The notes below the pieces were generated by a model. It did no database searches, was not told the origin of the DNA, and saw only the letters and a list, made by a program, of their open reading frames with translations. A DNA stretch of 58,169 nucleotides, counting the filler, from Catajapyx aquilonaris (Eukaryota): the NCBI GenBank assembly GCA_000934665.2. It is 3 parts of 3 records of this genome, joined end to end, with 100 filler letters (N's around TTAATTAATTAA, not from the genome) between each part and the next. Parts side by side here need not be neighbours in the genome. Positions count along the whole stretch, not along the records: positions 1 to 19,338 come from JYFJ02006484.1; 2 more parts are not named here. One strand, written 5' to 3'. Shown here piece after piece: positions 1 to 48,409 of the stretch; position 1 is the first letter of the stretch, and each line of letters opens with the position of its first letter. The position numbers and the translations under genes are program-made.

Positions 1-97
1 AAAACCAAGGTCAGGATCGCCGGCCTCCGGGGTTCGAACCCAGGACCTCCCGATTAGCAGTCGGATACCAAATCCCCTCCGCTACCACTGCTTCGGT
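1..97 (-). mobile_element. 5' tRNA-derived head of a SINE (continues off the left edge of the window)
   Basis: Reverse strand reads ACCGAAGCAGTGGTAGCGGAGG...GGGTTCGAACCCC, with Pol III A-box and B-box motifs, then continues into non-tRNA sequence. Confidence 0.7.
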
Positions 98-184
98 TTG
101 AAATACTTATTGTCATTTTGATGATCCATTTATTGACATTCTCACTTGTACATCTTTTTCCAGGAACTGTTACCTTCAATTTAT

Positions 185-1300
185 TATTTTGTTCTTTGCA
201 GGCACTGTTAGAATAACACTTAGAATTACATTTAGTATTACTTGAACGCTATTTACATTTCATATCAATGCAGTGCCTGTTCCAACTACAACTTAGGAAT
301 CCCTGCTTACTACAGGTTGAATTTAAAGCTGAATCCGATCGACGAGATACATAACTGGAGGGAACTTCGTTCAGATCTATAAAATTTGAATCAGCAGTTG
401 TTGTGAACTAATTGCGGGCATACAGCCTCTCTAAAACGCTTTCCAACTGGTAGAGCCCAGATGCATTAACGTCTATAACAACCCCTGACACATTCCTATG
501 TAGGAGAAAACATCCTAATCACGACGACGCTTCTCCCTATATCGACTGGGGGAAGCCTTGATTTGGACAGGAAACAATTTTCTCACCTTATTTTTTATGA
601 TTGAATCTTGTGCCTTGACGCTTACTTTTTGTGGTCTCTTTCCTTGAACACAGGTTGCAAGTCTGATTTGCTATCCAAACCCCACATTTTCTTCTGAATA
701 TTTTCCACAGATAATGTAAACAGACTGATCACAAACAAAGCACTCTTGTGAGCACAAGAAGACTTTCTCACAAACCGCACAGTAGTAGCCTACACTTGTT
801 TTTGAGTCACTTTCTCAATGTTTTATCTTGTCACTTATACTTAGTGTTGGCTCCATCTTCACCTCTTCTGCTCTGAATGTTGTTAGCGTCTTATTCGTCA
901 TGAGATTGTATTTTATTGCTGCTAATATTTGTGAGGTAAAGAGCTGTTCTAATTCCTTTTCAGTTTCTATTGAAGTGTAGACGCTCTTGTGAAAAGAGCT
1001 TCAAGTCCGATCCTTTGTGCTCTGCCAAGCAGAGCTTCATAAGGGCTGGTCTTAATTCCTGCGTGCACCGGTCAGTTCTTCTTGCTCTGAATCTGAATAA
1101 AACAAAATCCATCTGACCATCTCTGTATGTTGTTGTCGGTCATGCACGCTACCAACATGATTGTCTCTAACATCTTGGTTTGATCTCTCGACCGATCCCT
1201 GACTTTGGGAATGTCCTGGCTTTCCAGTTATCCTTTAAATCATATTGTTTTTTCTTCTTGGGTTTTCAATGTTGCAGATGGCACACGATTGCGTCAGCTT
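185..1300 (-). mobile_element. Degenerate Ginger2-like (KRBA2/SCAND3-type) integrase/transposase fossil
   Basis: Minus-strand translation across stops and frameshifts gives GKPGHSQSQGSVERSNQDV...WSDGFCFIQ...HAGIKTSPYEALLG (about 1225-1000). This is followed by a Cys/His-rich segment (CAVCEK...AHK.CFVCDQSV.IICG...GFG...CNLC), then LYQL...LERLYARN, and a C-terminal QGFLSCS...C...CNSKC...C segment. This is the domain order of KRBA2/SCAND3-like Ginger2 transposases. Confidence 0.85.
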
Positions 1301-4300
1301 CGAGTTGTTGAGCTATATAGGATGTAATGAAAACGCTGACCTGACGCCTTGCCTGACGCATGATGAAGGATGTTTGGCTCCTACAGCGCTAACAGGAATG
1401 TGTCAAGGGTTGTAATAGACTCTACCCGTTGGACACCAAGGAGAGGCGGGTATGGTTACGCCTGGAATTCATCTGCGAGCAGTTGACCAGACAGTGTTCC
1501 AGATATTTTCCTTTTTGGTCATAACGAGATGTCGGGGAGAACCGCACGTTATACTAATTTTTGTTCAGTTCCCTTCCAGGTTTTACGAGGGTTCGATGTT
1601 CGGGGGTAGGTGGTAAGAGGAAGATTTAAAATAGTTAAGGGAGAGTGTGTCATAAACCATTTGACCTGATATCTTGTGCATGTAGTATAGAAATGATTGT
1701 CCCTGCATATGAGTTAATAATGTGCTCAGATGTCAGCTAATGTGTGAAACACGTATACATAAGAAAAATCCAGAAAAATTGGTATGAATTGGATATGGAG
1801 TTGTATGAAATTGAAATTTTGACCAGTGTTGCATTTTTAATCATTATATTATCTCCTGCACATGTAAAGTACCTTGTATATACCTGACCAGTCATCAGAG
1901 GTTTTACGTGTGTCGGTCATGTGAGATGGCAAGGGGTTGTGTCGGGTTGTGTTCACCTGGTCATCGCTGGCTATACCTTGTCATGGGATAAAGCCATGAG
2001 GAAGTGAATGGATATATGGATTTCTGATGACTTCTGGAACATCATCCTGCGCATGTATAACACTTACACACAAATCATCTGTGCCACAACTGGTTAGAGA
2101 CCACACTTCATTTTAGATAATTCATTCCTTGCATTGACTGATGATCTCCTGAAGACTGATTGATCATTGAAGAGAGTTTGATGTTAATATGGAGGCTGAT
2201 ACAATATTTCATTTTGTTGTTTTGAAGATGAAACCATTGCATTGCACATGGAACTTTCATCATGGAAGATGATGCTTGTAAGTTTGTGATATTTTTCTAT
2301 GGTTAGAGCATAGATTAAGAAGGTACCTTCTCAATCTATGGGTTAGAGTGACAACTGGTATGCTGGAATGGCACTTCAGGGACATTCGATTTTTTTCAAA
2401 CTAAAACAGACGTGTATTTGATGGTGTGTTATTTGAAAATAACAGCTTTTTAAAGTCATAAACAGAGTCAAGTAATTTGGAGTGGTTTATAGTGGAAAGT
2501 AGTGAGCACTATGGAATAGTGAAAAGTTGAGACAGATAATATGTTTTGAATATTTTGTTATGTTTCAGGATGTATGGCAGTGATTAATTTGTGTTGTAAC
2601 TTCCATGCTTAATTTGTTTCCGCGGAAAAAAATCAGGCCAAGAACTTTTTGCATTTTTCACTGGCGGTTATTACGTTTTTCTCCCCAGCCCTTCATTATT
2701 GTAAAGAGTATTTTAATATTTCTAACAGTTGTGAGAATTATATTAAGCAACTTGTCTCATGTCAATATGTTACTGACTGTTACAGCACGAGTGATTTGTC
2801 TGAAAAATGCCGAGCGAATGTGGGATTCATTGAGAATGTGAGAGCAAATGCCCTGTCTGATATGCAGGCAGCATGAACCATGAAAATGAAGAGTGACCAG
2901 AAACTACCAGACAAGACAAGGTGGGCTACTATAATTCCAGTGCCATGATAATCATTTCAGGGAATTTAAGCACATGCTAACACTGTTGAAAATATCTTAC
3001 TGTCAGATTCAAAAGGAGTTAGAATCATTTTCAAATTCTCCTGACGAGAAGGAAATTCAACATTATGGTATACAAGCCTTTCTGGGTGATACTATTGCTG
3101 GGGACACCTGGTGGAAACCAGAGCCACACCTACCCTATGATCTCACTTCACCCTTTAGCACTTGGAATGGGCAAATGCAACATGAAAGACTTCTGCATGT
3201 GATGTCATTAAGGTCTCTTATGGTAAGGAACACACTTTATCTTCATGCAGGATGTTTCAATGTAATGATTAATTTTTTGTAGTTTGGCAGCAACCAAAGT
3301 TGAATGAGAGCAATAATGTGTCTCCTGAGTTATCATGGTCATATCTATCATCAGGTCTCCTGACTGTATCATACCAACTTATGTACTTCGTGAAGAAGTG
3401 AACTTGCCTGAGGCTGAGCTGCCAGAAGACCATTAGGTGCCCCCAGATATCACAGTAGCATGTGTCTCAAATGGTTAAGCAAAAAGAGAAAGGAGGTGAT
3501 GGTGGCTTGGCTGCTGTGAATAAATAATGTGATGATGAGTGCACCAGCAAGAATATGGAAAGAGAGAGCAAGCCATTAAATGGGATAAATGCAGATGATG
3601 AAGTCCAGGAAGTGGTAGATGACACGAATGCTCAAGAAACTGCACCTGCCAAGGAAAATAGTGAGCAAAGTACCGAAGTGTCAATAAGTAGCTCTGATAA
3701 AACAGAGAAGATAGTTAACATATCTGGAATGAAGAAAGCAGAGAGAGAGTCAAGTACTATGAACAATGAATGAACTGTTTGTGATGATACCCAAGAAGAA
3801 AGCAACAATGAGGCTGAAGAAAATATTCAAGATGTTAAATGTTTGATCACCACAGAAACAAGTGTGGGGAAGAAGAAAGCAAATTACTGACTAAAGTAAT
3901 CAAAGATGATGAATCACCATAAGCGAGATGAATAACTGGAGCACTGAACTAATAGGGAAATGAGAGCTCTAACAGCACAAGTTCCGTATCCCATGGTCAC
4001 AAGAAGTATTTAAAAAATGATTATAATTATATATATAGTTTTTATTATATTATTTTTTACATCTACATTTTTCAACCTAGTGCTGCGTATTTCGTTCTCA
4101 ATATATTTATGATAGTGTGAAGGCATTATTTTATAATATTATGCACTAGCAAGTGAGAGAAGGTCCTGGGGGACTGAAACGTAACCCCACCTTATTAACA
4201 CGGTAAGTTATTTCTGCTTTGACAATCAGTCTTTAGGTAATGACAGACAAATTATCTTGCTCATTACTCTGCATTGTTTACTGGGATGCATAATGCATGT

Positions 4301-4617
4301 ACAAGATATGGCTTTGGGCAATCAGCCCTTAGTTTGCCTTTTGCGGTATACGCACAATGCCACTTGGTGGTTTAGAAATGTGCAGCTCCACTCAAACACT
4401 ATGGCTCCAATGCAATTACCCCAATCTCGAGCCACTTTCACTTGCAGTTTATGCATGAAATGTGCCTGTACTTTAAAGATCAATTGACTTGACAACCCTC
4501 TAATCCATACATATCACAGATTGCTACGTGTGGAAAAGGATGATTTCTAACTCTCTAAATAACTTTTCCAACCAAATAGGGAATAAGAAGTATGGTTGTT
4601 CCAATGTAAAATAATTG

Positions 4618-4971
4618 GGGGAGGCACGGTGGCCGAGATGGTAACGTCTCGGCTTGCTATGCGAAAGGTCCCGGGTTCAAATCCCCACCCGGGAACAAAC
4701 CTTTCGCTTGCGTCATTGGGTCATGACCCGCCCCTAAGGAGGCGTCTTGGCAACCTGACCTCCTGGGGGACTGCACCTGGCCCACCACTGGGCAATGCAC
4801 CTGCACATGTGTTCCCTCCCCAAAATCCCCTACCCTATTTCCTAGTATTCCTTGCACCGGTGATTGAAGTAAACACAAGAGAAAATTGTATGGTGGTCTG
4901 CCACCCCCCTAAAGCGGCCTATAGGGTTGCATCACGGGGTAAATAAAATAAAATAAAATAAATAAAATAAA
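4618..4971 (+). mobile_element. Full-length tRNA-derived SINE with 15-bp target-site duplication
   Basis: A box TGGCCGAGATGG, B box GGTTCAAATCC and (TAAAA)n tail. Flanked by the direct repeat AATGTAAAATAATTG at 4603-4617 and 4972-4986. Confidence 0.9.
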
Positions 4972-6394
4972 AATGTAAAATAATTGTCACTATTAGAATA
5001 GTTCATGGGCCCCAGCAATGGCCACGTTAGACAACTAAAAGTTGTGATATGCTTTAAATGTCCCCCAAGCATATGATATTATATTTATGAAACAGAGTCA
5101 ACACAGAAATACACCAATAAAGGTTGCACATTTGGGCAGGCAATATCAGGTGTGAAAAGTGCAGCACTCACTTTCATCTGCTGCGTGTAAGTGAATTAGG
5201 TCTCTGCGTATTCGAAGTCAACTAAATAATCTGATTATACTGTGTATGAGAGCAGTGCTATTTCATTGTTGGACCATCTAGTGCAATCTTTTGACATTAT
5301 GCATTATGATGGCCAATATGTGTGTATTGACTTTTTTTCAGTGACTAACATGGGATTGTTGAAATCCTTGGGGCATTATGGCCAGCCTTTTCTAAAGGAT
5401 CTTCAGAATTCAGTCGCCCTTCAAGCGTCAAAAAGTATTTGCATCCTGACGATTTCACACACTATCTCCTAAATAAGCAAGCTCAGGCCCTATATTCAGC
5501 AGGACTATACTCCTGTCCTGCTTATAATAATTATGGTCACGATGAAGTAGCAAGTCATCCACCCTAAGGTGACAACACTGGTCAGGGAATTTGGTGATTT
5601 GTCACCTGCAACCAGTGGGAAGGTTGGTAATATTTTTCTTCTGCCTTATCCTTAATTTGAGTGGAAAATTGACAAGATTGTGGTAAATGGTATAGAGTAA
5701 ATATTAACCTGTTGACGTTATTTTTATTGTTGTGGGGATAGGCTGAAATCGGAGGATAAAAATAACTGTGGTGTAGCCTATGTGGATTACCCCAAATTAA
5801 AGTGAATCTAATGATAGGTGGAACCGTAGAACTCATTGCATAAGAGGTGGGCCCTCGGGTGGGCCTCAACAGAAATGGTGTGCACATTAGTGTTGGAACA
5901 CTATTGAGTGGAATCGATACCATTTGTTTATTTATTCCAAGGAAAACAGTCAGATGGAAAGGAGAAATTCTGGCCCATCATGTGTATGGATTACCACTTT
6001 GCTGATTTATCCGTGTCATAACTCCTCCCACAAAATCAACATCAACCTAAAAATTGATGAAGTTGGTCATATACAGGGTGTCCCAAGTATATGCATCAGG
6101 TCGCTTTAGTTATAGACAATTTATTGTGCTCGAATATCAGTTATTTTTTGTAGATTGTTGCGACCAGATCCACAGGTGGAGCAACTGTGCAAAACCTAGC
6201 TTGGTTGTGACCACGGTCATGTTGTGACTGACGAACTTACTGTTGTTGGAGAACAAAAGAGTGCAGAGAAGCACACAAGACACAACTACACTCTTTATTG
6301 TAATTGGTTACCTCATTATAGACCTGTGATTTTTAGGGGGCTCCTTTAAATGACCTAACTTTATTTCATCAGTGTTGCCAAAGGCTTTTAATTA

Positions 6395-6525
6395 CACGAG
6401 GGATCGAGGGAATCCAAAGATAACCCACATGAACATGAATAGAAACCATCAAAATTCTTACAACCTCAGAAAATACTGCCTGACATGGGGATCGAACTCA
6501 GAACCTCAGTGGTGCTAACTACCAC
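6395..6525 (-). mobile_element. Degenerate SINE fragment
   Basis: GGGGATCGAACTC (reverse B box) plus an AACCCACATGAACA body motif also seen near 21025 and 40790. Confidence 0.45.
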
Positions 6526-7382
6526 ATAATGCTGTCCTAATCATCATCAAGCTTACATTATATATTTTTTCGCTCACTTCCCCATTCTCATCTACCGTTT
6601 ATTGCTAGGTATCAGAACACCTGCATGATTTGTGGTATACGAGTAAAATGGGGAAGGACATGCAATTTGCTTTTCAGGCCATCCTTGGTGTAATCTTTGG
6701 TGTTGTAATTTTCTTCACCTTCTAAAGTACTTCTGCTTCGGGTATTTGAGCTGCTGATGGTCCATTGAAGTAATTTATCACTATAAGTATATTGTCAGGG
6801 CCAACTAAGTCCGTTGACACCGAATCATCATGTACACAACCCAAGCTAAACTCTATCAACGACTGTATGGTTTCAGAACATTCCCTGTTATGAGAAAAGT
6901 GAAGATCAAAATTTGTTTAGCAAGTATTCATCTGATATTAGAGGCGAGATATGGCTCACCCCAGCATGAGATGTGTCAAGAAAATGTCATTTTATTACTG
7001 TTGCTGCACACCTCAGGAAGTGCAAGAAGCACATTCATAGGATTTTCCATAAAGCAGTTCTCATGATAATCACTCATCACAGTCCGTCTTTCTTACGTAC
7101 AATGTTTCCACGCTGCCCTGTACTCTGATGAAAGCATTTTGTTATGAGTACATAGGGTACATAATACTGTAGGCCTATGTGATTACTCTGCACCAACAGA
7201 AATGGAAGAACTTCCATAAAACCCATTCTAAACGGAGGTAACTTTGCAATGTTATATTTCCTAGTAATATAATAAATTATTGTCCTTCGTCGCAAAAAAG
7301 CATTTTGTGCCTCATGCATTGACGAACGGGCCCACAGGAGAATACTGTCCAAAATTCTCTCAAAATTATCTACTACTGGTAT

Positions 7383-7383
7383 T

Positions 7384-7420
<37 letters not shown>

Positions 7421-7754
7421 TCCGGGGTAGTGCTGACCTCATCAGAGGTATGTAGCACGGACCTTTATTTATTTTTGTCGTGTACATTGGAGCCTTTATA
7501 CATAACGCCCGGGCCCACGGGCAGGATGACAGGAGGGGATGTGCAAGGTGCAGTGCAATGTCTTAAACGTGGCCATTTTTAGTGAACTCCCCCGGGTGGT
7601 TTAGTCTGTGGAAATACCACCCGAGACGAAGCCAGAGGTGACCCTGAACTCTGCACGAGATGAAGGGGGTATCCCCGGGTTGGGATCGAACTCGGGACCT
7701 TAACATCCGTGGGCGCGTACGTTACCGCAGCACCACTTCGGTCTTCGCCTCCCC
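7383..7754 (-). mobile_element. Full-length tRNA-derived SINE with (ATT)n tail and 14-bp target-site duplication
   Basis: Reverse strand has TGGTGCTGCGG (A-box-like) and GAGTTCGATCC (B box). The (AAT)n run at about 7386-7420 is the tail. Direct repeat TCTACTACTGGTAT at 7369-7382 and 7755-7768. Confidence 0.9.
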
Positions 7755-10700
7755 TCTACTACTGGTATAAGCGTTGCCTCTGGTCCACAAATGGGTAGTC
7801 TCATTTAATAATTAATAATGCACTTGAGTACAAGGCAATTAAGAATGTTCAATGGCAAATATTTTAATTCCAATAATAATCCAACAATAACAATGCAGGA
7901 CAGCAAAATGTGTAGTCATAAAATAACTTCAGGACACAGCAAGAATTATATAACACAACAATTTACAGTCATAATTTTCACAACCAATAATGGGCAGTAC
8001 GGTAACACTTTTTCATGACACAAGGTCATATTAGGAACCGCAATAGGCCCAGATTGCAGGTTCAGCAATGCACCTGTATTTCTTTAAAAATAGGTGAGGG
8101 TATTGCCCCCCAAATGACCCTATATGACATCATACGGCTCTGTCAAATTGACCCCCGAATCAAGCTTGCTATTATCCCTACCCGAGAAATAAATCTCACA
8201 GAAATTATCAGGCAATAGAAATGTAATCATAGAGATCAGAATGATATCTATTGCCCGTGTAAAGGTTTGCCACGAACCTTACCATGTCTAGACGTAGGGA
8301 TCACTATACCAACATTAGCGCTACCACGCGACCAATTCGACTATAGTGTCAGTTGTGGTTTTGGCCTTTTCTGCATGGTGGCGCCATCCTTGGAACGACA
8401 AGTGGCTCCTCATGCTTCATATCAAAAAATCCAGGTGAAAATGTCTGTAGTATACGCATGAAACTGTTGACATTACAGTGTCAAAGAAACATGTGTGCAC
8501 AAAAAAAATAAGCATGCGGGTAATAGTTGCGTGGGAGTAAGGGTTCCAAAAATATTGCGTGGTAAGTTAGGCAACTGCTGGGAGGAAACAAGCTCGAGTC
8601 TTCCACATCGCGTGCGAGCCTCTCCACGGGACATCTTTGCTTCCGTGTGATAAGTGCTTATCGCAACAAATCCTAGAGCGGACTCCAAAGGACATGCAAA
8701 CCTCTCAGGTGCGGTCGTGTAGCCTAGCTAAAGGCAGACCACCCCCTCCATACAAAAAAAGAAGAAAGAAAGAAAAAAAAGGTCCTAAAACGAGGGTCCC
8801 TTTTGATTCTGCCTTACTCGTCAGGAATTTGTGCCTTTTGGCTTTTGTGCTGGGATATCAGAGAGAGAATATTTTATGCGAAAATGGGTAGTGGCACTCG
8901 TGATATGGGTCATTCCTGTCTATCTTCGCAGTTGGAGGTCTTCCAGATTTTTTTCTCCAATCGGTGGTTGGAATCAGGCAAGTCTATAACACCGTAATTT
9001 CTACTTTGATTTATAACCTTTGTAGAACGCAATCGTAAATTAAAAATTATAAAGGCAGCTTAGGTCTTAGGCATATTTTAGTAGACGTGCCATATAAATA
9101 GTGCTCTCATTTTTATACACATAGCCTACTGTATACTATAGGACTGCATAGTCCATCGCGTAATATTGTCAGAAAAGTCGCTCTTGAAATTCTCTGCTCA
9201 TTACCACTTTTACCAGTATTTTGTAATAATGTTTAATATTTTCCAAAAATAATAAACTTTGCAAGTGAAAAACTTATTGAGTTTTAAGTAACTGCAGCTA
9301 AGTTTTGCATTCTAAATTTTGTACTGTAGGTCTAGATATCATAATTAATATTATTAGGATCAGAGTGTTATTACATTGTTTGATATTCAGGAGGTGGGGC
9401 TACAGTGGCACCATTCTTTTCGGGTGTTTCTTGTGGCTTTCCAAGACAGAGGCACCTTTGTTGATTTTGTCGATTTCGGCTTTACTACTGACATTGAGAT
9501 AATAACATGTTTAGATTACTTTGTCACGCACTCCAGTAAGAGGGGCCATCCTGCGTGCCAGAAGACCTATACAACATGCGTGGTTGGGGGTGGGAGTGTG
9601 TGTGGATTAATCCTCGGGATAACTCAGACTATTATTACGAGTGTGACGAAAGTAAACTTGACGTGAGATTATCTCCTCATTGAAGCCGAAGTCACCAAAT
9701 AAACTGGAGAAATGTCTCAGGGCATCGCAAATAACATATAAATTCGAGAGGATGGTACCAAAACTTTGTACCATACGAGCCATATACTAAGAGATGGGTT
9801 CATGAATACCTCTTCAGAAGCTGTAAACAGGCCCATTTCACTTTTTAAGGACACATAATCTGTGTGGTACAGCCGTGTACTGTACTGTTATAAGAAATGT
9901 ATGGATTTGAACTTTCAGAACTGAATATGTTATGTGTATTGCCGGCCAGGCAGTGTATGAGAAATTCTGCCAACGGAAAAACCTTCTTGTATACTGGACA
10001 AGCTGAGTACGAAAGTGACATCGCAATATTATATGCTACTCATCCTTTAAAAGAAGGATATGATTGACATAATAGACTAATAGCCTGAATAGGAGGCCTT
10101 TTACATGTTCGCACTTAATTTTTTACCGTACATTAAGATTGGTTGTAAAGGATTCCCTACATGTGTGGACTTCATCAGCCGACAAAAGAAGGAACACTAA
10201 AAACCAGAACCATTATAACGAATGGACTTTGCACTCTGGTAGCACTCCATTCGGGTATAAAAAGAATTTGAGAGAACATCCTGATTCTCAGATTACAATC
10301 TGGAAATAATTGGTTCTTGCCACTCGAAAATTGAATAGTCCGTAGGTGCAATGTGCCGGGAAATTAGCTTTCTGAGGACGTATAGGCCTATGCTCGTGCT
10401 AATACCCGGTGGGATCAGCCGGAATCCGTCCTTGCCTTGCAACCGTTGCGTGGCCCGCAGTTCTATTATCCGTGATGGACCATAAAAAATCATAAATCTC
10501 GTGGAGCACATTGGGTTCGGTTTGTTGCCATATTTGATGGTTGGATGGCGTGAGGATCTTTCTCCGTTAGGTTAGCTCTTCGTTTTAACCAGGGATGAAA
10601 ATCTAGTAAAGCGTTGCGATGCATAGGCCAGCAGATTTACGAAGGAGAATCCTCAATCTATTTTTTTTTGTTAGCTCTCTAGCCCTCGTTTTGGAAAATC

Positions 10701-12254
10701 ATGGAAGGAAATCACGCATGGCGATACCATGCCGAGTTGGTGAAGTCTCTGCAGGCCAGACTTGCAACTCGTAGGATCCATTTCAAGTGCCTCTCGGGTC
10801 TCCTCTTGAAAAGCATTAGCCTCACACAGCCTCAGGCTACTATAATTCATACCATAAACTTGTGCGCCTGACGACTCCCGGAGGCAAAATTCAAGTTGTG
10901 CCCTTCTTCTCATGCAACCAGGTCATCTTATTTACAGCACTTTCTCTCAAGGACCAGCTTATAGTAGTTGTATTGTGCTTGAGCTATATGCCGGCGCGTA
11001 CACTTGGCTAAGGAGCCAAAGGCGGCACACCTTACCAAACATAATCGTATTTTCCAGCCTAATTACGGTTGGAAGAAGGTGAGAGAAAGTAGGAAAGCAA
11101 ACTGACAGTGGGCTAAGTAATGGAAGAAATTACTTGATGGGCTCAAATATTGAGTGAAAATTGTTTAAAAAAAAGGCATACTTCATGGAGGAGAGTAACT
11201 GAAAAATCGATTAAATATTGAGCCAAAAAATTATTAAAAATCTTTTAGGGTGTAGGCCAAAAACCCGTTTAATTGAGAATATTTGCAAATGTCATATGTA
11301 CCTTTAAATTCAGAAACTAAAATTCCAATTTTTTCATTCTAGTCATTCGTATGTTACTGGAAACACTGCACTGTCGAATGTATCAAAAGGGATTACGATG
11401 ATTTACAATATAGAAGCTTACAAAGTATCTGTGAACAGTGCCGGTATTATTGTGCGATATTTGAAACTTGAAAGGTATGTTTGAAAGATTGAACACAATA
11501 GTATACCTTTTAAAATTAATTACTTTTCACAATAAATTGATGCCACTATGAATTTTCCACGTCAATACTTCTGAAAACCGCTATCATCTCTTACAAGCTA
11601 CGTATAGCAATGAATAAATTCAATTTTTAGCAACATGCTATGCCTCATTCCGTAAATGCCTTTTACTAAAAAGGGAAATAAAGCGAGCCAATCGAACAAG
11701 AACCCTTTTTCTCAGTAGCTGTAACGTCCTCGTGTTGAGATCGCCATTGCGTGAGAAAGGGACCCCCCTGCTCTTGCTCCCTATTGCCCCTTTTTCCTCC
11801 CTCTACTTTCCTAACAATTGCATGCACGACGTTACCTCTCATCTTAATTGATGGGCCGTCAAGATGGCCTCATGCGATACACCCACTTGGAGGAGAATAC
11901 TTCATTTAGCCTAATGAAAACGCCATCCACAAGCGAGAGTGTATATGTTAGGCTCAAACCCCGAAAACGGCCATTGAAAAAAAACCCTGCCAGACCGCGG
12001 AATGGATGGTTTGAAAAAGAGCATTCCGCGGAATGGTAGTTTTCAAAACGGCCAGACCCCGATATGCTCTTTTTAAAAGCCAGAACGCTTTCTGGACTAA
12101 ACGAAAATGTCAGGGCGCGAATTGCGTGTCGTGATGGCTGGTTTAGAAAACGCCCACAACATGTTGTGTCAGTTTCTTGTTTCCTACTACGCCAAGTAGA
12201 TGCTGGAACTAAATCACCCTATTGTTCTTGGGTAGGCCTACGTATTACTTTCAA

Positions 12255-12560
12255 ACTATAACTAATTCTCTTGTCAATCTCTTCGTCTATTCTACCATTA
12301 CCCTCAAGGACACTACCCAGATATACAAACTGGTTCAATTGCTTAACTCCAACACTAATGCTAAACCAGTCAGAGAGACCTCCACTAGATCTAACACAAG
12401 CTTTCCTCTCTACATACAAGGACTTCACGGCATCCAACAGGCGATGCTTCACTGCATAAAGACACAGAACCTCTAACAAGCCTTCTCTACTACTGTAAAA
12501 CTATCATAAGCTTTCTCTATGTCTACAAAGGCAACAAAATCCTTTTTGTTTACAGCTAAA
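12255..12560 (-). mobile_element. Internally deleted LINE reverse-transcriptase fragment (RTE-like)
   Basis: Translation FVDIEKAYDS...LLDAVKSLY...ACVRSSGGLSDWFSISVGVKQ is joined directly to FVYLGSVLEGNGRIDEEIDKRI. Both are typical non-LTR RT segments, with the catalytic middle missing. Confidence 0.8.
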
Positions 12561-12562
12561 TA

Positions 12563-13731
12563 CTTTTGCCCAAACCCATAATTGGACGGTGTTATGCAAT
12601 AATGAGTCAACCCACAAAAGGGCTTTGAATGTCATACCCGTGAAATTAATTCTGTGTACTTTTCGGTCATTCGTGGCAGAAGTATGCAGATTTTGCCAGC
12701 GTGATTTTAACTGATTGATTGAAGTATGATCCTTTAGGTATATTATGTTCCTGGGGTTAACGCAATTTTTACATTTTTGTGGGTTGGCTCATTATTGCAT
12801 AACACCGTCCAATTATTCGGCCACCCCCAAGAAATGGAGTGGTGGGGTTATAAACAAGATGTAATAAAAAGTTTCCATTAATATTATCAGGACTTTAGTA
12901 TAGATAATTATGAATAGTAACATTTTAGCTAGGAGGATACCAAAATAGAAGTTAATTTGACAGTTAACAACTGAAATAAATACGACTATATCTTGGACAG
13001 TGAATTTCTGTGGTGTCGGGTACAAATTGCAGCTACTACGTTTATTTCTTACGTAGCGAGACGTAAAATTTGATAATGAACCTTAGGAGCCACAAAAACC
13101 CAAAATCCCTATTGAAATTAATTACAAAAAATCTACCACTGAATTAAAAACATTTATCTTGGCTGGGAAATATGAACATTTCTGTGCATTTTTGAATGAA
13201 CGACTTTTAAACCCATTTTACATTAATTGAATTGATATTTTTTATCATAGCACATTGGACTGAGTTCTAAATAAACAATACTATGATATTTTAATTGATT
13301 AATAAATAACACCGTTAAACGCGGTACAGCAAAGTGTATCAATTTCTGGAAAAATTCACCAGCCATGAAGATTTTTTAAGTCCGCGGTAGATTTTTGTAA
13401 TTAATTTTAATACAGGTTTTGGGTTTGTGTTCTCCCTGAGGTTCATTATTAAATTTTATGTCTGGCTAAGTAAGAAATAAACGTAGTGGCAGCAACTTTT
13501 ACCAGACCCCACAGAAATTCATTGTCCAAGGTATAATTATATTTATTTCAGTTGTTAACTGTCAAATTAACTTCAACTTTGGTATCCAACTAGCTCATAT
13601 GTTACTATTCATAATTATCCATACTAAAGTCCAGAGAATCTTAATGGAAACTTTTTATCACATCTTATTTATAACCCCGCCACTCCATTTCTTGGGGGTA
13701 CGGTGGCCCAATAATTATGGGTTTGGGCAAG
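12563..13731. mobile_element. Large foldback/MITE element with roughly 370-bp inverted arms
   Basis: Termini TTGCCCAAACCCATAATT and AATTATGGGTTTGGGCAA, flanked by TA. About 12815-13170 is an imperfect inverted repeat of about 13355-13715. Confidence 0.8.
12584..12810. mobile_element. Small MITE inserted into the left TIR of the foldback element
   Basis: TIRs GGACGGTGTTATGCAATAATGAG and CTCATTATTGCATAACACCGTCC, with AATT duplicated on both sides. The uninterrupted site is visible in the right arm (about 13705-13730). Confidence 0.85.
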
Positions 13732-14176
13732 TAACAGTTCCTGGGAAAAGATGCACAAGCAGCAAGAATGTTAATTAATGGATCATCAAATGTTAAATAT
13801 TCCAACCATTTGTCAAACAACAATAGGGTGATTTATTTCCAGCATCTACTTGGCGTAGGGGGGGAAAAAAACTGCCACAATGCGTTAAGGGAGTTTTCTA
13901 AACCAGCCATCACAACACGAAATTGACATTTTCGTTTAGTCCAGAAAGTGTTCTGGCATATTTAAGAAGAGCATTTCGGGGTCTGGCAGTTTTTTTGTTC
14001 AATGGCCGTCATCCAAAATTATTTTAAATAAATACAACGCTATTTATGCGTGTGAAGGATGTGTGAAGAAGCGCACATTCTCTAGAATATATACCGTATG
14101 TCCTTTTTTCATTACAATAATACTACTCTAATGGTAGTTGATTCAGAAATCGGTGTTTCAGGGACGGAATTTTTTA

Positions 14177-15616
14177 TCTCTATCTCTATAAATAAGGAGA
14201 GTTTGTTTGTTTGTCCCTTATAGAAATTAAGGGGAAAGCCCTACACCGCCTTAAATTAGCATATCGGGGGTTACATTTTCCAAGGAATCTAACGCCGCAT
14301 GTTTCAGCTTCCGAAAATGAACCAAACTCTCACAACACGCATATTCCCGAATCTTCTCACTTCTCAGGCCTGAACAATTAACTTACATAAACATCAAATA
14401 TAACAATAAGTTATAACGATTCACATTCCCATGGAAATGCCCTTATGCAATAATACCGCCTAGAAAATTAAAGCATTGCCGTATATTCAACGCATCCACC
14501 AATTACGCTAATTGGGCACCTCACGTGAGTTCGTATCGTATGGTCATTCCGGGATTTTGTGGGATTTGCAACTAGACTTCCAGACAAAAATAAGTACAAT
14601 AAAATATCAGTAAAACTTCCATAAGTCGAACTTCCCTAAGTCGAACTAATCTATAAGTCGAAGAAAATGATGAGCTTGGTTGGTCACAATGTAAAATGAA
14701 AATAGGAAATAAACTTCCCTAACTCGAATTTCTATAACTCGAAGTTCTCCATAACTCGAAGTGCAGGCAGGGCCTTACGATGGGATATCAATGCATTTTC
14801 AGTCTCCCTAAGTCCAAGTTCATGTTGGCGAGTATACGGTATTCTCATTTCCCAGCAGAAGGGCACGGAGTAGGCCACATGTACAGAAAGGCTCAATTTC
14901 CTGATCTCCGTCTACCAGACGTAACCAAAGAAGTGTTTGACTCTGTTGAGACAATTGAATCATTGAATTTAAGAGTAGCCAAATGTCCATAACTGAGATT
15001 TTTTTTACATCAAAACAATGAGAAACATTGTAAGTGTGATAGTGACAGTTATTTTTAAGTTTTGAACACCTTTCGTCGCTGGATATAAAGGTAGGCTTCC
15101 TTATAGAGTTAGGTGCTTAAATAATTCCAAATTACTCTAACTCGAATTTTTTCCATGTCCCATGGAGATTCGACTTATGGAAGTTTTACTGTAATACAGT
15201 ATTTACAAATATTACTACTAACTACGTGTTGAAAACCAAATTTCCCACCATGCATCTGTACATAAATTTCTAAATTTCTTCAGAGCAAACATATGGAACG
15301 AGATGGGGGTGTGAAGTGGAGTTGGGGGGTCAAGGGGTCAAAAATGCAGGGGGAAAAACACACGGCTGTGCAGTCTTTTCCTGGGCCAACTCCATCCGCA
15401 ATCCTCTTTTTACACATCCAATCNCAGGTTATCTATCACAGATAGTGACAAACTTTGGCTTATTGCAACTTATAAGGCCCATTTTAAGACATATCGAGCT
15501 TCGAGTGTATTGAAAGGAAATTCTTTCAAACAAATACACTTCCTAAAATACTGTATATGTACCCCTACCTTTACCAGTACCCCAACATACCCGGGCAACG
15601 CCGGGTAACCTGCTAG
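14177..15616 (+). mobile_element. Non-autonomous Helitron
   Basis: Starts A|TC followed by TATAAATAAGGAGAGTTTGTTTGTTTGTC. Ends with hairpin CCCGGGCAACGCCGGG and then CTAG|T at 15613-15617. No TSD. Confidence 0.75.
14608..15191. mobile_element. pogo/Tigger-like MITE nested in the Helitron
   Basis: TIRs CAGTAAAACTTCCATAAGTCGAA and TTCGACTTATGGAAGTTTTACTG, TA on the right flank, and repeated internal TAAGTCGAA/TAACTCGAA motifs. Confidence 0.8.
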
Positions 15617-16089
15617 TTCTTCATAAATGAAAGAGAATAACATGCTGATTATTATTATTATTCTTTCTCAGTAACTATGGCATTATTTGTACTGTTATCA
15701 GGCCAAGTCGGCACTCCAGAGAAAGGATTGTAGCAAACTGTTGAAATCTGAGAACAGCAAGCATATAATTATTAATGATGTTTGTGTCTGTCAGGAGCTC
15801 CTATTACTTGCGTTAGTCATAATCTTGGTTAGGGTTCTAAATTCGTTGCAACTCACTGCCTACACTCAACCAAGTACAGTATTAGCATACATTATTTCTG
15901 ATAGATTATAAAAGTAACTTTTAAAAACAAACTGCTTAATAATACGCAGCTTATTGCCAAAATGTAGTGAAATCAAGTGAAATTCACATCTGCCTTGACC
16001 ACACTTGTGTAGTGTAGTATAGTACACTAAATGCATTATTTTGACAAGCGTTACATGGATCTCAATGTACGGTTTCAGTGTGGTTTCAA

Positions 16090-16128
16090 TACTCGAGGTA
16101 GAGTACCGTACGTACTCTACCTCGAGTA
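16090..16128. repeat. Perfect 17-bp-stem palindrome (probably a collapsed MITE)
   Basis: TACTCGAGGTAGAGTAC-cgtac-GTACTCTACCTCGAGTA. Confidence 0.7.
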
Positions 16129-16288
16129 ACGAGAGCCTTGCCGCTTGAAAATGCAAGAATTATCCCGCCCAAAGCATCTCCCCCCTTTGTTCTACCTGCA
16201 ACCCTATGCAATCGTTCCGAAGTTACTAGAACACAAGAAACATCACCAATTTGAAAATTCCGCCTCGATAGAAGGCAGGAGTACTGGA

Positions 16289-16350
16289 CCAATGGGGACG
16301 AGCCTTGCATCAACACAAGCGTGGGGTCATTGCCCTTCGCGTCAGCCAAT
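16289..16350 (+). promoter_or_regulatory. Two CCAAT boxes upstream of the H3-derived gene
   Basis: GACCAATG at 16287-16294 and AGCCAATC at 16344-16351, 140-200 bp upstream of the ATG at 16490. Confidence 0.4.
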
Positions 16351-16489
16351 CGGAGCTGCTCTTCTTCCCAAGCTAGGCTGTCGTTCTATCGAAGGATAGT
16401 CCGGCAGGCACTAACAGTTGCTCGGAGGTGTGTTGGGAGCTGTAAGATAATAACTTAGTCCCGACTCTCCATATAGGTAGGCCTACGAA

Positions 16490-17180
16490 ATGGCTCGTAC
16501 AAAACAGTGCCGTCGAAGAGATGCAATGAGCTCAAACTACGCCAGGGCGGTGTTCCCGCCATCCTCCCCACGCGGGCAGGTAGTACAGGCGGCAGCCAAT
16601 GATCTTCTGGCCCCCGCCACGGGTCCGGGTCCATCCGTAGCCATAGCCCCTGCTCTCGGGCAACACCGGCAGCTGCCAAAGCATGGCAGATACAGGTAAA
16701 GTGTGCTGTTCGGTCAAAGTGGTCGAAAAGGCATATGTTCCAACCACATTGTTTCAGACCGGGTTTTGCCGACCGTCGGCGGCGCAGGCGTCTTCGCCTG
16801 TCCCTCGATGCTCCGTCCCCTGCCCCTGCTCGGGATTCGGACACTGCCCCTACAGCCGCCAGGGATTCGGCTCCAGCCGCCCCTGATTCAAGGGAAAAGT
16901 CAGCTGCCCCCGCCCCCGCCCCCGGCCCCGGCCTCATGGATCATATTCATCTGTATGTGTGATGTTCAAGCAAAGTGGTCCAAAAGGCGTAATTATGTTC
17001 TAATCGAATTGTTTCAGGCAGGATAACGCGGCCCTCCTCTATATCTCCGGCGCGGATGGAGATCCTGCGGATGGAGATCCTGCGGATGGAGATCCTGCGG
17101 ATGGAGATCCTGCAGATGGAGGAGGGAGGGTCTCACCCCAAGTGGTATCTGTTGTAGAAAAGACTTCAGTAACTGACTAA
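16490..17180 (+). CDS. Histone H3-derived protein lacking a canonical histone fold; 3 exons (16490-16695, 16758-16952, 17018-17180), 187 aa
   Basis: Two GT-AG introns (62 and 65 nt, both phase 2) give one continuous 564-nt ORF with start context CGAAATGG. Product: MARTKQCRRRD...PRGQVVQAAANDLLAPATG...KHGRYR|PGFADRRRRRRLRLSLD...AARDSAPA...HL|QDNAALLYISG(ADGDP)x4...VTD*. AATAAA follows the stop. Confidence 0.75.
17052..17120 (+). repeat. 15-bp tandem repeat (GCGGATGGAGATCCT, about 4.5 copies) encoding ADGDP repeats
   Basis: Directly visible, and in frame within exon 3 of the H3-derived gene. Confidence 0.95.
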
Positions 17181-17208
17181 TGAGGGAATCTCCCAATACT
17201 TTATGTTA

Positions 17209-17240
17209 AATAAAAGGACGTTCTGTATCTTGTGGGTTTG
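17209..17240 (+). terminator. Polyadenylation signal of the H3-derived gene
   Basis: AATAAA at 17209-17214, starting 29 nt after the stop, followed by the GT-rich TCTTGTGGGTTTG. Confidence 0.55.
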
Positions 17241-17354
17241 AGAAAATTGTAGCAGGCCCCGATTGGGTATTGTCTTGCTCCGGTTCACAGTTAACTACGC
17301 CGGGGTGGCCAGCCGGCCATTGAGGCATATTTCCACCCCCATCTAATTCACCTT

Positions 17355-19338
17355 AGTAGTTAGATTAAGCAGCTTCCTGAAACACATATAAAATGCCACA
17401 AGCGTCGCCACCGTCTATGCGAGTTAACATGGGAAAGCGCTACTGCGGCGGTTTCTGTAACTAGTAAATATGCGTGGGCGGAGTCTCCAGCCAATCAGGA
17501 GGCTCGCCGAGGAGCTACGCTTTGAAAAGCAGCGGCGGCCCCCGCGGCAGTGGCAGCACCGTCGCTCTCGGTGGCGAAATGAAAAATCCCCTGCAGCGCA
17601 GAGCCGGGCTGGAACCCAGGGTCGCCCGATTCGGAGGCGGGCATCAAAGGATCACGGCCAAGACCGCATGCCTGGAATAGAAGTGTCTGGGAGGCGCCCT
17701 ATATGCAGCCTGCGCACGCCGCACGCTTACACGGCACGGCCCCCTGTCCCCTGTGACGCGTTGACTCTCACACTCACACACGATGATGCAGCCAACACGT
17801 GGGCCACCCCGGAAAGTCCCAAAAATATGGTTCGCAGTAGCGGCGGGGGGATTCAAAAAAGATTTTGGCATTGCCTAAATTCCGATCACGTGACGCGGCA
17901 CAAGTTGGCCCAGCCAGATTTTCTGTGGGGACATGGGAAAGTGTCGAAAATATATTTGGGGAGCGGCGGGCGATTCAAAAAAGAATTATATACTTGCCGC
18001 GGATTATAAGGGGGAAAACTAAAGATGGCCCTCCCACGGCCCCCAGGTCCACCCTAGGGAAAATTTGGCATTGCCTAAAGTCCGATCACATGACGCGGCA
18101 CACTTTGGCCCACCCAGATTTTCTGTGGCCAACCGGCAAAGTCCCGAAAACATTTTTGGGGAGCGGCGGGAGATTCAAAAAGGGGGACAGGCGGCTGCGG
18201 CTCCGGGGGGGAAAAAAAACCCAAAGATGGCCCTCCCACGCCCCCAGGCCCACCCTAGGGAAAATTTGGGAATGCCTAAATTCCGATCACGTGACGCGGC
18301 ACAAGTTGGCCCAGCCAGATTTTCTGTGGGCACATGGGAAAGTGTCGAAAATATATTTGGGGAGCGGCGGGCGATTCAAAAAATTTCTCATAAATGTGCA
18401 CAAAATAATGGAAGATGGGAAGGTGTCCATGCCTCTTCGGGTAATTTGTGTCAGTATTTAATGGAGCCCGTAAGGCGCCCATACTCGGCGAGAAAGACAG
18501 CCATCTTAGAGGGTGTCGGAAGGCCGCACAATAGAACGCAATGATACCGGGCATGGCGATTGGAGGGGGAGGGGAAAAAAAACAGGAATGCGGGCAAATC
18601 CTCATTTCTCGCAGAAGACAGGCATGGCAGGGGAGACACGACATGCGGCAGGGCATGGGGCAGGGATGAGGCCGGGGAGGGGCGATGACCCGGGCATGGC
18701 ACGGTGCTAATAACCATATGCAATGAATGCAGGAATCTACATCGCCTAAGGAATGAAATAGGGGGAAAATGATATAGCGGCATGGAATATCTGATTACAG
18801 AAAACCCGCAAAACCGAGAGCGGGAGCGGGCAGGAGGCAAAGATGATGGGGGGCGGGTGGTAGAAGCCAAGAGGAGGATGGCCCTCGAGCGACACCAAGC
18901 CAAGATGAAGGGGGTGAGGCCGAGGATATGGCGGCATGGTAGCGACCTGGACATGCGTGGTGCTAACCGGGCGACATGGCGCCACCGCAACGGGGGTGAC
19001 ATGGGGCGGGGGGCAGGGGATATGGGCCATGGGCGAGGCGGGGACACGGTCGAGACATGGCAGCAGGGCAAGGGACCCGGCCATGCATGCTGGGCGCCAC
19101 CGGGAGGCAGGGCAACATGGGGGCCAACGCGGTGGGACATGGGGCAACATAGATGGCGGGCAGGGTATGGGGCCTGGGTGAGGCTGGGACATGGGCATGC
19201 ATGGCGCTAACCGAGCGACACGGGCAGACATTGCATGGGGCTAACCGAGCGACATGGGCGGACATGCACGGGGCTAACCGAGCGACATGGGCAGACATGC
19301 ATGGGGCTACCAGGAGGCACAAGTTAGAGGCGAGGATG
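17355..19338. repeat. GC-rich element with about 200-bp direct repeats (x3) and about 30-bp tandem repeats; possibly the terminal region of a large DNA element
   Basis: Unit TTTGGCATTGCCTAAATTCCGATCACGTGACGCGGCACAAGTTGGCCCAGCCAGATTTTCTGTGG...GGGGAGCGGCGGGCGATTCAAAAA recurs near 17863, 18064 and 18264. GCTAACCGAGCGACATGGGCAGACATGCA recurs at about 19200-19310. The region runs into an assembly gap. Confidence 0.7.
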
Positions 19339-19438
19339 NNNNNNNNNNNNNNNNNNNNNNNNNNNNNNNNNNNNNNNNNNNNTTAATTAATTAANNNNNN
19401 NNNNNNNNNNNNNNNNNNNNNNNNNNNNNNNNNNNNNN
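19339..19438. other. Scaffolding gap (N44-TTAATTAATTAA-N44)
   Basis: 100-bp artificial spacer with stop codons in all six frames. Confidence 0.97.
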
Positions 19439-38769: not shown

Positions 38770-38869
38770 NNNNNNNNNNNNNNNNNNNNNNNNNNNNNNN
38801 NNNNNNNNNNNNNTTAATTAATTAANNNNNNNNNNNNNNNNNNNNNNNNNNNNNNNNNNNNNNNNNNNN
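38770..38869. other. Scaffolding gap (N44-TTAATTAATTAA-N44)
   Basis: Same artificial spacer as 19339-19438. Confidence 0.97.
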
Positions 38870-39029: not shown

Positions 39030-39830
39030 TACAAACTACCATTTATGCGACACTCGTTATACAATGGCACGTGAGATGCAAACCGGATCGTTTGATGACC
39101 ATTCGCACCTTTAAAAAAAAATATTGTGTATGTGAAGCACATTATCTCGGTAACTATGATACGGAGACGCACGATTCCTATACATGATCGCCTAGAACCA
39201 TTCAACCATCCCCATAGCGAACGTATAGATTAAATCCGAACCCTGTATACAGTACTACATTGATGTCAATGATTTGTTAAATAATGATAAAAACCATATA
39301 ATTATGTGTTTTGACTGCACACATTATTGAAATAAAGCGGAATCATTAAACTACTTCTCATTCGAATTTTTTAGCTCATTTTTAGACAGTAAAATAAACA
39401 CAAAAAGAAAAATTGTGTTAATATAGTCCTATCAGAAAAGCAGAATTAGGTTCACCTGGTCCATAAATAATTTAGTAGCCTACATAATGTTATAATTACC
39501 ACTTTTATGCGTACAATAATGAAATGAAGATGCCCTGCCACAATGTGTAATTCGGCCGAGAGTAAAATAATACCGTTGACTTTTTATACTGACCTTCATG
39601 ACCATGGTGGGTTTCTTCAAGGTTGATGATATTGACCTACACGTGTAGTATATATCGATTATTACGACACAACCTCTGTTACAGGCATAACGGGCGGAAA
39701 ACACTAATCAGTCGCAGCTTCACTTCCTATAGCAATGGAGTAGCACATGTGACTCGTGAGGAATTGGAGCCATGTCTGGTGCAGCTCATCAACGAGCTTC
39801 GACCACTCATTCGAAGATGTATTTTGCATT
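39030..39830 (+). pseudogene. takeout/JHBP remnant: MQY-type promoter interrupted before the ATG, plus an exon-2 fragment
   Basis: AAACCGGATCG..GATGACCATTCGCACC promoter block at about 39080-39110, then unrelated sequence, then HVTREELEPCLVQLINELRPLIR at about 39745-39818. No other exons. Confidence 0.8.
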
Positions 39831-41006
39831 AACGGTGGCGAGACAAGTGAGGCAAATAAAGATGTCATTCAATGTCTATAAGTGATCCATGTAGTTTTAA
39901 GCAACCGGTAACACTAGTCCAGATATCCCATATCCATGCAAACGCGAGTTTGTTTACGTGGTCGCCAAGGGCTCGCATTGTTACCGATTGTTACCGTATT
40001 TTTTTGCTAATGCGCCCCCTTAAAATCGGATCGGTATTGTGGAGAGTGAATTGATTGCTTATTATCAGTATTGAAGTCTGAACACATTCATGGTGACCGT
40101 AGTCTGGGGGAGAGGTCACAACAAGGGGAAAAAATTAGGGGAACTATCGCTTTCATACTATGAATAAGTGGTTGAAACCAGTCAATAAATTAGTCACCAA
40201 GAGAGTGACAGATGATGCCAAATAACCAGTATTTCTGTGGCTCAGAAAATATTTAATTTAATCAAAGCATGTACATCTTCCATGCTGAGATGTGTCCAAA
40301 AAACTAGTGTTCCAAGTTTCGTGTCTTTATCACCGAATCCTAGCCCCCTATTCAAATACAAACGAAACGCATGTTGCACAGTTTGTTAGATACGGCAACC
40401 ACGTGATAATGACCTCCAGCGGGGTCGGCCATCGTTTTCCCACATCCAGATGTATTCAGAAGGGTCAAAAAACTAATTCACCAAGTTTCACGTCTTTATC
40501 ACAAAATCCAAGCTCCTAATTCACATAGAGAAGTCTGATGCGCCCGTTAAATCTGGCAACCCCGCAAGTGACCTACAGCGGGAAATGAGGCAATGGGTAT
40601 GCTATCCGCAAAGTAGGCTAATGTTTTTCAAAAACACATTTTTTACTCGAATTTTTAAAAAGCAGCAGGAATCGGGGAAATGAGAATATATTTTAGTAAT
40701 AATAATTAATAATAATTAATAAATATTAATTTAATAATAAGGGGGAACAGAGATGTTTGAAATGTGGCGGGAGAAGAGAAATGCCCGAGTAAACCCACAC
40801 GAACACGGAGGGACACTAAAGGATTTCTCTTGATACTGGTATCAACAATGACCTTTGTGATGTGTCCTGATCGACCGTTTTGCTTTTGTCCAAGGTTACT
40901 TGCGACGCTAACGACGCGACGGTTTATGCAACTCTCGTTATGCAACGGAACCTGAAAATTGTAAACCGGATCGAAGGATGACCATTCGCATCTTAGCCTC
41001 TTAGCC

Positions 41007-42325: not shown

Positions 42326-42893
42326 ATATTTTGTATTGTCCCATTTTACGGCTGAAATAAATATGGATTATTGTTGCTATTTCATTGTTGAGAAGATTAA
42401 GATTGTCACCTGCTGTCCCAACATTTTAGTGCAAAATATAAGTTTATAGTAACTTGAGAGAAGACCCGCCGGCAAGCAGAACAAACAATAAAAAATAGTT
42501 GCTTCACTACAATTTTTCTTTTCTTTTTATGGCTAAACTGAACCTATTTTCATCATTTTTGATCCTCGTCGTCAGACCTTGCTGATTATCATACAGGTTG
42601 GGACTAGGTGTCCCAACATACATACATACACTAGCAATAAGGTGAATGTATTGCTTTCAGTTGTAGGTCTATGGCCGGATTCTTATAAATTAATCTTACA
42701 GTAACCTTGCATTGCACTTCGTTACATAGTCACATTAATCTGTATGATGCCTATAGTTGATTCCACCAAGTCTCCCCGGCAGAATGTTAACTTGTTTTTA
42801 TGTAACTCCTGTAATGAAACCTATATATCTGGAGGGCACACTGCTTGTGAACAAGAGAGTCGTCATTTGTCCTCTGTCCAGATAACCAAACAG

Positions 42894-44433: not shown

Positions 44434-44820
44434 ATATTTTGTTATCAACCTGGTGGTGTGTATGGTTGAAAATAACTTTGTAATATGACGCAAGTATGGA
44501 AGTAGGGTGAAGTATGATATATATTTTCTGTTCCATCTTACTTGCCATCAAAGTTTTATTTTTGTCCAAACTGAGTTAGAAATAATTGTCCGGCAGTGCG
44601 TAATGTACAGTACATGACGACGAAACACCGACAATAAAAAGGATTTGTTTAACAATATTAACTTATTTGAATGTGGAGAAACATTTATCACTACCTTGTT
44701 TTTTTTATCACACGAGTTATTTGTGACGCTAATGACTGTTCATGTAATACTCGTTATGCAACGGAACCTGAAATGCAAACCGGATCGAAGGATGACCATT
44801 CGCACCTTTGCCTCTGAACC

Positions 44821-48341: not shown

Positions 48342-48409
48342 ATGCAGTATATACAAGTCCTTTGCATTCCTGCTCTGGATTACAGGCAGCGTCTTCGGAA
48401 TCACACTAG
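48342..48409 (+). pseudogene. Orphan MQY-type exon 1 with a 4-bp frameshifting insertion
   Basis: ATGCAGTATATACAAG versus ATGCAGTACAAG in paralogs. Promoter block and donor are intact, but it has no exons 2-6 of its own. Confidence 0.85.

Follow-up and report, generated by a model that had tools for sequence, protein, structure and literature searches.

Animal genes for the replication-independent histone H3.3 begin with the codons for MARTKQ, interrupt the Arg42 codon with a phase-2 intron (TAY AG/gt...ag/R CCN), can carry an acceptor-like tract just 5' of the ATG, and have a poly(A) signal and no histone stem-loop. Here we describe a locus in Catajapyx aquilonaris (assembly GCA_000934665.2) that has each of these features. 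The locus occupies positions 16490 to 17180, on the plus strand, of a 58,169-nt stretch of three joined contigs, hereafter the window, of which the first is JYFJ02006484.1 (positions 1 to 19338). It differs from H3.3 genes in lacking a histone fold and in the interior of its tail, which has decayed and gained 78 nt. Exon 2 contains another, decayed copy of the tail, and the second intron, instead of being a phase-0 intron after Gln93, is the twin of the first and occupies another Arg42-equivalent site. The explanation that we favor, with confidence that is about even, is that the locus is a lineage-restricted three-exon gene derived from the 5', tail-coding part of an H3/H3.3 gene.

The predicted product invites comparison with proteins that imitate the H3 tail. 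The histone mimics known so far are short motifs that arose by convergence on unrelated or viral proteins. H3TM proteins, which include VRK1, BCL11B, TSHZ1, PCLAF and others, are defined by an iMet-Z1(small)-R2-X3-K4 N-terminus (PMC8166343). As outlined in that report, their tips bind H3K4me3-reading PHD/Tudor domains in vitro or, when unmethylated, the NuRD complex, and can be methylated by H3K4 methyltransferases. H3TMs are unrelated proteins whose common 4-residue motif arose by convergence and is borne by a folded or functional body. The candidate begins M-A-R-T-K, in keeping with the H3TM rule, and removal of the methionine should expose an H3-like tip. In contrast to the H3TMs, its tip, probably inherited from an H3 gene, is identical to H3 over 6 residues and is attached to a low-complexity body. 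If this reading is true, an H3-descended host gene without a fold but with the exact tip would be a natural 'tail-only' histone and would offer a direct handle on the action of a free H3 tip in the cell. A brief literature search, too thin to support a claim that such a protein is unpublished, turned up no relevant report of a fold-less H3 variant.

Gene model and signs of H3 descent

The original prediction for this locus was a two-intron, 187-aa open reading frame (ORF) with CCAAT boxes upstream and AATAAA downstream, and a script reproduced its coordinates. Reading the sequence and running the script both place the start codon at 16490-16492. The coding part of exon 1 (16490..16695, 206 nt) begins with the MARTKQ codons (16490-16507) and ends in KHGRY plus AG. 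It is followed by intron 1 (16696..16757; 62 nt, GTAAAG...TTTCAG, 44% GC) in the Arg42-equivalent codon, exon 2 (16758..16952; 195 nt), intron 2 (16953..17017; 65 nt, GTATGT...TTTCAG, 37% GC) and the coding part of exon 3 (17018..17180), which carries an ADGDP repeat and closes with a TAA stop at 17178-17180. Both introns are of the GT-AG type, lie in phase 2 and have TTGTTTCAG at their 3' ends; GC content is 55-68% in the exons and 37-44% in the introns. Left unspliced, the ATG frame meets a stop immediately in intron 1 (AGG TAA), and the message would then yield a tail-only peptide of 69 residues. As originally claimed, the RYRPG motif is present only in the spliced sequence. The signals of a live gene (ATG, two donors, two acceptors, frame and AATAAA) are all intact, and we put the chance that the locus really is spliced and translated at roughly one half.

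Judged from its sequence, the locus very probably descends from an H3/H3.3 gene. The case for this ancestry lies in discrete characters rather than in alignment scores: the start codons, an intron 1 that sits in the Arg42 codon in the H3.3 phase, and the α-N-like beginning of exon 2. The first 6 residues (Met-Ala-Arg-Thr-Lys-Gln) are identical to the H3 N-terminus, as originally noted, and the window has one instance of the corresponding codon pattern, against none in 100 shuffles. At the DNA level, 16490-16507 matches nt 1-18 of an H3.3 coding sequence (locus L056) at 17 of 18 positions (94% identity).

To judge the intron, H3.3 intron positions were measured directly on rebuilt public genes. 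The reference H3 genes comprised 20 loci from viral contigs and 42 from metagenome contigs, the latter gathered with a KKPHRY-AG/GT pattern; 30 of these 42 have a downstream PGTVALREI exon, and 23 coding models could be rebuilt. Intron 1 of the candidate cuts the Arg42 codon after its second base (TAC AG/gt...ag/A CCG GGT). The same Arg42-codon junction, in phase 2, is found in the 30 of 42 fetched loci with an exon junction and in the 23 rebuilt H3.3 models, which bears out the earlier suggestion that TAC AG marks the conserved H3.3 intron. An in-frame RY-AG/GT...AG/N-PG arrangement behind the ATG arose in 2 of 200,000 shuffles.

Exon 2 opens with 67 nt (16758..16824, beginning PGFADRRRRRRLRLSLD...) that resemble H3 residues 43-65. 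Against H3 44-60, 6 of 17 residues are identical (20/50,000 shuffles), and in the DNA 28 of 52 nt agree in register, a value equaled by 3 of 116,236 window offsets. The start of exon 3 has a weak likeness to H3 44-60 (2,401/50,000 shuffles), and a local test of exon 3 found no H3 similarity (649/1,000 shuffles).

Aligned to H3, the whole spliced protein holds up against shuffled controls (Smith-Waterman score 59 against 34.3 ± 5.1, reached by 1/1,000); without MARTKQ the figure is 15/1,000. The original prediction listed H3 landmarks in the right order along the protein; the start and the Arg42 junction stand, and the interior ones (PRGQ.., APATG) are marginal at the protein level (98-186/5,000 shuffles) and not significant in the DNA.

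The flanking signals would fit a polyadenylated gene. Three CCAAT boxes (16246-16250, 16289-16293 and 16346-16350), read from the sequence, mark a stretch (16246..16350) that may act as a promoter-like region. A pyrimidine-rich tract ending in AG (16460..16476), 13 nt 5' of the ATG, is a possible acceptor of a putative intron in the 5' untranslated region; an acceptor-like tract also lies 9-29 nt 5' of the ATG in all six two-intron H3.3 loci (L021, L032, L037, L051, L056, L061). On its 5' side, the ATG frame is bounded by a TAG (16478-16480). Downstream, an AATAAA (17209..17214) lies 29 nt past the stop and is followed by a GT-rich stretch. Rfam detected no histone stem-loop (RF00032), either at the gathering threshold or at E up to 1, so the predicted pairing of a poly(A) signal with no stem-loop holds, and the transcript would presumably be polyadenylated. 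No other Rfam family matched at gathering and no tRNA genes were found. We dismissed as chance a Tymo_tRNA-like match (E up to 1; 20.9 bits against a gathering score of 40) and dropped a mirtron/snoRNA reading of the introns, whose RNA folds are unremarkable (z -1.3 and +1.8).

The spliced ORF encodes a 187-aa product in which A (33), P (24), R (20) and D (20) are abundant, with a calculated pI of 8.9 and a mass of ~19.4 kDa. Its first 86 residues are basic (18 K+R) and its last 53 acidic (12 D+E). Only 4 lysines remain in the 187 aa, in agreement with the claim that K4 is kept while most H3 tail lysines are gone. The ADGDP run corresponds to a 15-nt unit repeated 4.7 times in tandem (17052-17121), and the internal repeat periods, 15 and 21 nt, are both multiples of 3. 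The predicted protein is of low complexity; the locus either codes for a young, disordered protein that bears a genuine H3 tip or is a relic in decay.

The histone fold is almost certainly absent from the locus, as originally predicted. Neither the locus, in any frame, nor the rest of the window holds a remnant of H3 residues 61-135. Pfam gave no match to the fold (PF00125; three helices and two loops, at about residues 63-135) at E up to 10 on the three exons and none on the ORFs of other frames; with real H3.3 as query, neither tblastn nor blastn matched any part of the fold, and DNA-level tests were not significant. The best matches in the window to H3 61-93 and 94-136 fall outside the locus. 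Lacking the fold, the predicted protein could not make a nucleosome.

Two similar introns and a further copy of the tail

Introns 1 and 2 are twins, ~80% identical, with an alignment score of 55 against a maximum of 23 in 500 shuffles. The exon pairs are not clearly similar: 28 of 500 shuffles equaled the best of them, exon 1 with exon 2. A 19-nt core common to both introns occurs only twice in the window, and its pattern had no match in public metagenome contigs. Real H3.3 genes do not behave this way. In none of the 6 two-intron loci are the introns twins, the first and second coding introns being unrelated in sequence, and no convincing similarity links the candidate introns to the H3.3 introns across those 6 loci. 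The best scores against H3.3 second introns (17, in L021 and L061) were reached by 12 and 5 of 200 shuffles, respectively.

Nor does intron 2 sit where the second H3.3 intron does. In the 6 of 23 models that have it, the second coding intron of H3.3 follows Gln93 in phase 0 (CAG/gt...ag/GAR). Intron 2 of the candidate lies in phase 2 within a Leu codon, is a twin of intron 1 and is preceded by a second exon-1-like unit, and we rejected its identification with the Gln93 intron. The comparison with H3.3 genes agrees for intron 1 and disagrees for intron 2, and an LQ landmark that had been tentatively read at intron 2, by likeness to LQEASEAYLVG, found no support.

The last 128 nt of exon 2, up to the intron 2 donor (16825..16952), form what we call unit C, a second decayed copy of H3 exon 1 (codons 1-42 plus 2 nt). 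Aligned without gaps to H3 1-42 in the coding frame, it scores 27 with 10 of 42 residues identical (11/50,000 shuffles). Neighboring registers score 8 or less, and the position is second-best of ~116,000 in the window. Its 128 nt are the exact length of the coding part of H3.3 exon 1, so exon 2 resolves into 67 nt that are H3 43-65-like and a 128-nt second exon-1 copy. MARTKQ itself is kept in the first unit only; the same positions of unit C read PARDSD. The original prediction had the fold replaced by Pro/Ala-rich sequence and ADGDP repeats. The repeats are there, but part of the Pro/Ala-rich sequence appears to be another copy of the H3 tail, turned acidic. A more apt description of the architecture is one of reiterated H3 5' units that carry twin introns. 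These units, the twin introns, the second tail copy and the H3-like read-through frame discussed below are what is new here.

Duplication offers the simplest account of this layout. A unit made of a 128-nt exon 1, the Arg42-codon intron and the first 67 nt of the next exon would have been copied in head-to-tail order with the reading frame of the mRNA preserved, each unit contributing 195 nt (65 codons). Such an event would leave a pair of like introns and make exon 2 exactly 67 + 128 nt long. The exon of the first unit would later have expanded by 78 nt; the fold-coding remainder of the H3 gene is missing. We consider a tandem-unit history of this kind fairly probable on the sequence comparisons above.

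Introns of similar appearance arise in other ways. Introner-like or transposed introns are near-identical introns at several sites, many of them in unrelated genes. The present pair recalls them in being ~80% identical, with the likeness bounded by GT and AG, inside unrelated exon sequence. It differs in consisting of two copies in one gene with none other in the window or in public metagenome contigs, and no target-site duplication was found for it. Introns born by tandem duplication or intronisation, as described in four reports (PMC3265369, PMC4974935, PMC2891723, PMC3002245), offer another parallel, in that an in-frame reading of intron 1 looks like the H3 codons lying before its splice site; the locus, too, has an internal tandem duplication. 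Against this parallel, intron 1 no longer resembles the 62 nt on its 5' side, and its site is the ancient H3.3 intron position, so a new intron gain is not required. If intron 2 was copied from intron 1, the locus would hold a datable intron duplication inside one gene. Twin introns in unrelated exons, with one intron that is coding-like when read in frame, make a small and tractable case of intron copying or birth.

Weighing the competing explanations

Several observations weigh against a functional H3-derived gene. The similarity to H3 was not significant in ordinary searches. The profile searches took the exons one at a time. Pfam found no family in the three exons at E up to 10; phmmer found no H3 match at E up to 10 in the Protein Data Bank (PDB), where H3 chains and tail peptides number in the thousands, and the E values of tblastn at window scale were no lower than 0.8. 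Word-based comparison of exon 1 with longer proteins yielded 88 candidates, none at E up to 10, and the exon 2 ORF (16603-16959) yielded 1,331 candidates, none at E up to 1. The single match of exon 1 among 1.84 billion protein representatives (P0001; E 2.5e-4 in 8 stretches) is to a 630-aa repetitive protein unrelated to H3. We dismissed this match as compositional, and the ESM Atlas returned no usable match. The setting also tells against the gene, which lies inside the last 3.3 kb of the first contig, beside tandem repeats. The 3.2-kb GC-rich block around it contains 7 stop-free runs of at least 150 codons and 2 of at least 187, so its open frame is weak evidence, and an antisense frame of 161 codons overlaps it. 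The twin introns are a difficulty in their own right: neutral decay of duplicated whole units does not predict introns ~80% alike beside dissimilar exons, in which the duplicated copies have become unrecognizable. A further difficulty is an H3-like frame that reads through intron 1, which fits poorly with a simple old H3.3 intron.

The nearest competitor, a real possibility though one we would rate somewhat below even, is that the locus is the decaying remnant of a partial H3/H3.3 gene duplicate, with no functional product and with an open frame that survives by luck in GC-rich, stop-poor, low-complexity sequence. It would then be an ordinary decaying partial duplicate. The missing homologues, the abundance of stop-free runs with ORFs overlapping in other frames and on the opposite strand, the place at a contig end beside satellite-like repeats, the fall of most H3 sequence to ~25% identity and the loss of most tail lysines all fit such a relic. 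What it leaves unaccounted for is that the ATG, a perfect MARTKQ, both donors, both pyrimidine-tract acceptors, the 187-codon frame and AATAAA are all intact. Starts have been lost in the sister units and kept in the first, repeat periods are multiples of 3, and the introns are far better kept than the exons, unlike in plain neutral decay. Other explanations are more remote. One, which we hold to be very unlikely, is that a mobile element of Helitron or Pack type captured an H3 promoter and 5' end and reiterated them, so that the locus is one of many copies and not a host gene. The gene does lie inside the GC-rich block, which starts beside a palindrome with 15-bp stems and runs on into tandem repeats, but no transposase or other Pfam domain was found in the contig, the 58-kb window has no second copy, and no terminal repeats were identified. 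Highly improbable, in our view, is that the likeness to H3 reflects chance or convergence, or that the ancestor was CenH3 rather than H3/H3.3. Standard searches gave no significant H3 match, and CenH3 tails are long, fast-evolving and of low complexity. Even so, MARTKQ jointly with the Arg42-codon junction makes chance very unlikely. CenH3/CENP-A combines a divergent tail with a required CenH3-type fold, and no fold remnant of any kind links the locus to it; of the two ancestries proposed originally, H3.3 or CenH3, the evidence supports only H3/H3.3.

The remaining alternative, which we judge unlikely, is that there are no true introns. On this view, intronless fragments of an H3 tail, taken either from a canonical H3 gene without introns or from a processed copy of H3.3, stand in a head-to-tail array: member A (140 nt) starts at 16490, B (195 nt) at 16630 and C at 16825. 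The pairs of GT...AG would be accidental, or secondary introns that arose by intronisation or by a Rogers-type duplication of codons 23-43; the reports cited above describe intron gain by tandem duplication and intronisation in retrogenes. The evidence for such an array comes from the read-through frame, which we call track B (16630..16809) and which follows the frame of unspliced exon 2 back through intron 1, aligning without gaps to H3 residues 1-60. Its first 42 residues score +31 against -25 ± 11 (0/20,000 shuffles), and it is the best window position for both H3 1-42 (31) and H3 1-60 (58; next 21). Intron 1 alone, in the frame of exon 2, agrees with H3 23-42 at 6 of 20 residues (11/50,000 shuffles); for intron 2, the same kind of test gave 1,201/50,000. 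The starts of B and C lie 195 nt (65 codons) apart in one frame, within a 119-codon ORF (16603-16962), and where the first unit has MARTKQ, track B reads SIRSHS. These scores are barely above the window-scale noise level of 20-26. Shuffled H3-tail queries scored at least 31 somewhere in the locus in 1 of 200 trials and at least 27 in 7 of 200. Once the last 8 nt of the acceptor are set aside, DNA support for an H3-derived intron 1 is weak (0.005-0.11 of offsets, by reference), and no signal of a 140-nt tandem duplication was seen between 16490 and 16630. An intronless array would also leave unexplained why two GT/AG-bounded pieces of 62-65 nt are 80% identical between unrelated flanks, why these pieces are AT-rich islands, and why exon 1 ends in RY-AG/GT in frame with MARTKQ. 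No processed-pseudogene marks (A-tract, flanking duplications) were noticed on reading the sequence, for which no dedicated search was made. Track B is either chance or a sign that intron 1 began as a duplicate of H3 codons 23-43, and if so, this would be an intron birth by tandem duplication or intronisation.

If the locus is a three-exon gene, as we favor, its six-residue H3 tip and the Arg-rich stretch behind it make a nuclear H3-tip mimic the best functional guess. Removal of the initiator Met would free an ARTKQ tip that could engage readers or writers of unmodified or methylated H3K4, as human H3TM proteins do in vitro. By this analogy, we regard a role as H3-tip mimic as a tentative idea, less probable than the relic. 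Distinctly doubtful is a fuller version, in which the animal expresses a soluble fold-less protein of reiterated H3-tail modules, with the ARTKQ tip of the first module under selection, as a decoy or carrier for H3K4 readers, writers or NuRD, and in which intron 2 was copied from intron 1. For a role as a sperm protein, or for carriage by a mobile element, both raised in the original prediction, nothing was found in support.

Surroundings of the gene and the rest of the window

The GC-rich block spans 16130-19338 and has 52-54% GC against 37-41% around it. A perfect palindrome, seen by eye at ~16093-16127 (15-bp stems, 5-nt loop), lies at the boundary between AT-rich and GC-rich sequence and may be the end of an element. 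A second promoter-like cluster (17465-17500), a GGGCGG box followed by CCAAT, lies ~290 nt past the gene's stop and has no gene that could be matched to it. Two tandem repeats follow: one of 201 bp (2.6 copies, 81% matches) at 17864-18382, 3' of the gene, and one of 33 bp (3.4 copies) at 19196-19309, at the end of the first contig. Long stop-free frames in this repeat zone gave no Pfam match, and nothing in the rest of the first contig rose above Pfam cut-offs. Farther upstream, a foldback/MITE-like inverted repeat of 308 nt occupies 12823-13130 and 13392-13699, its arms 88% complementary and 261 nt apart.

Spacers of the form N44-TTAATTAATTAA-N44 (six-frame-stop linkers) join the three contigs at 19339-19438 and 38770-38869. 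The window consists of three separate contigs, so features cannot be read across these spacers. The third contig carries a tandem array (39700-58169) of JHBP/takeout-like genes, in keeping with an arthropod. It comprises ~8-9 units, each about 2 kb long and opening with an exon that resembles a signal-peptide sequence. In one unit, the exons match the Pfam family JHBP (hemolymph juvenile-hormone-binding/takeout family), the best exon with an E of 3.7e-7.

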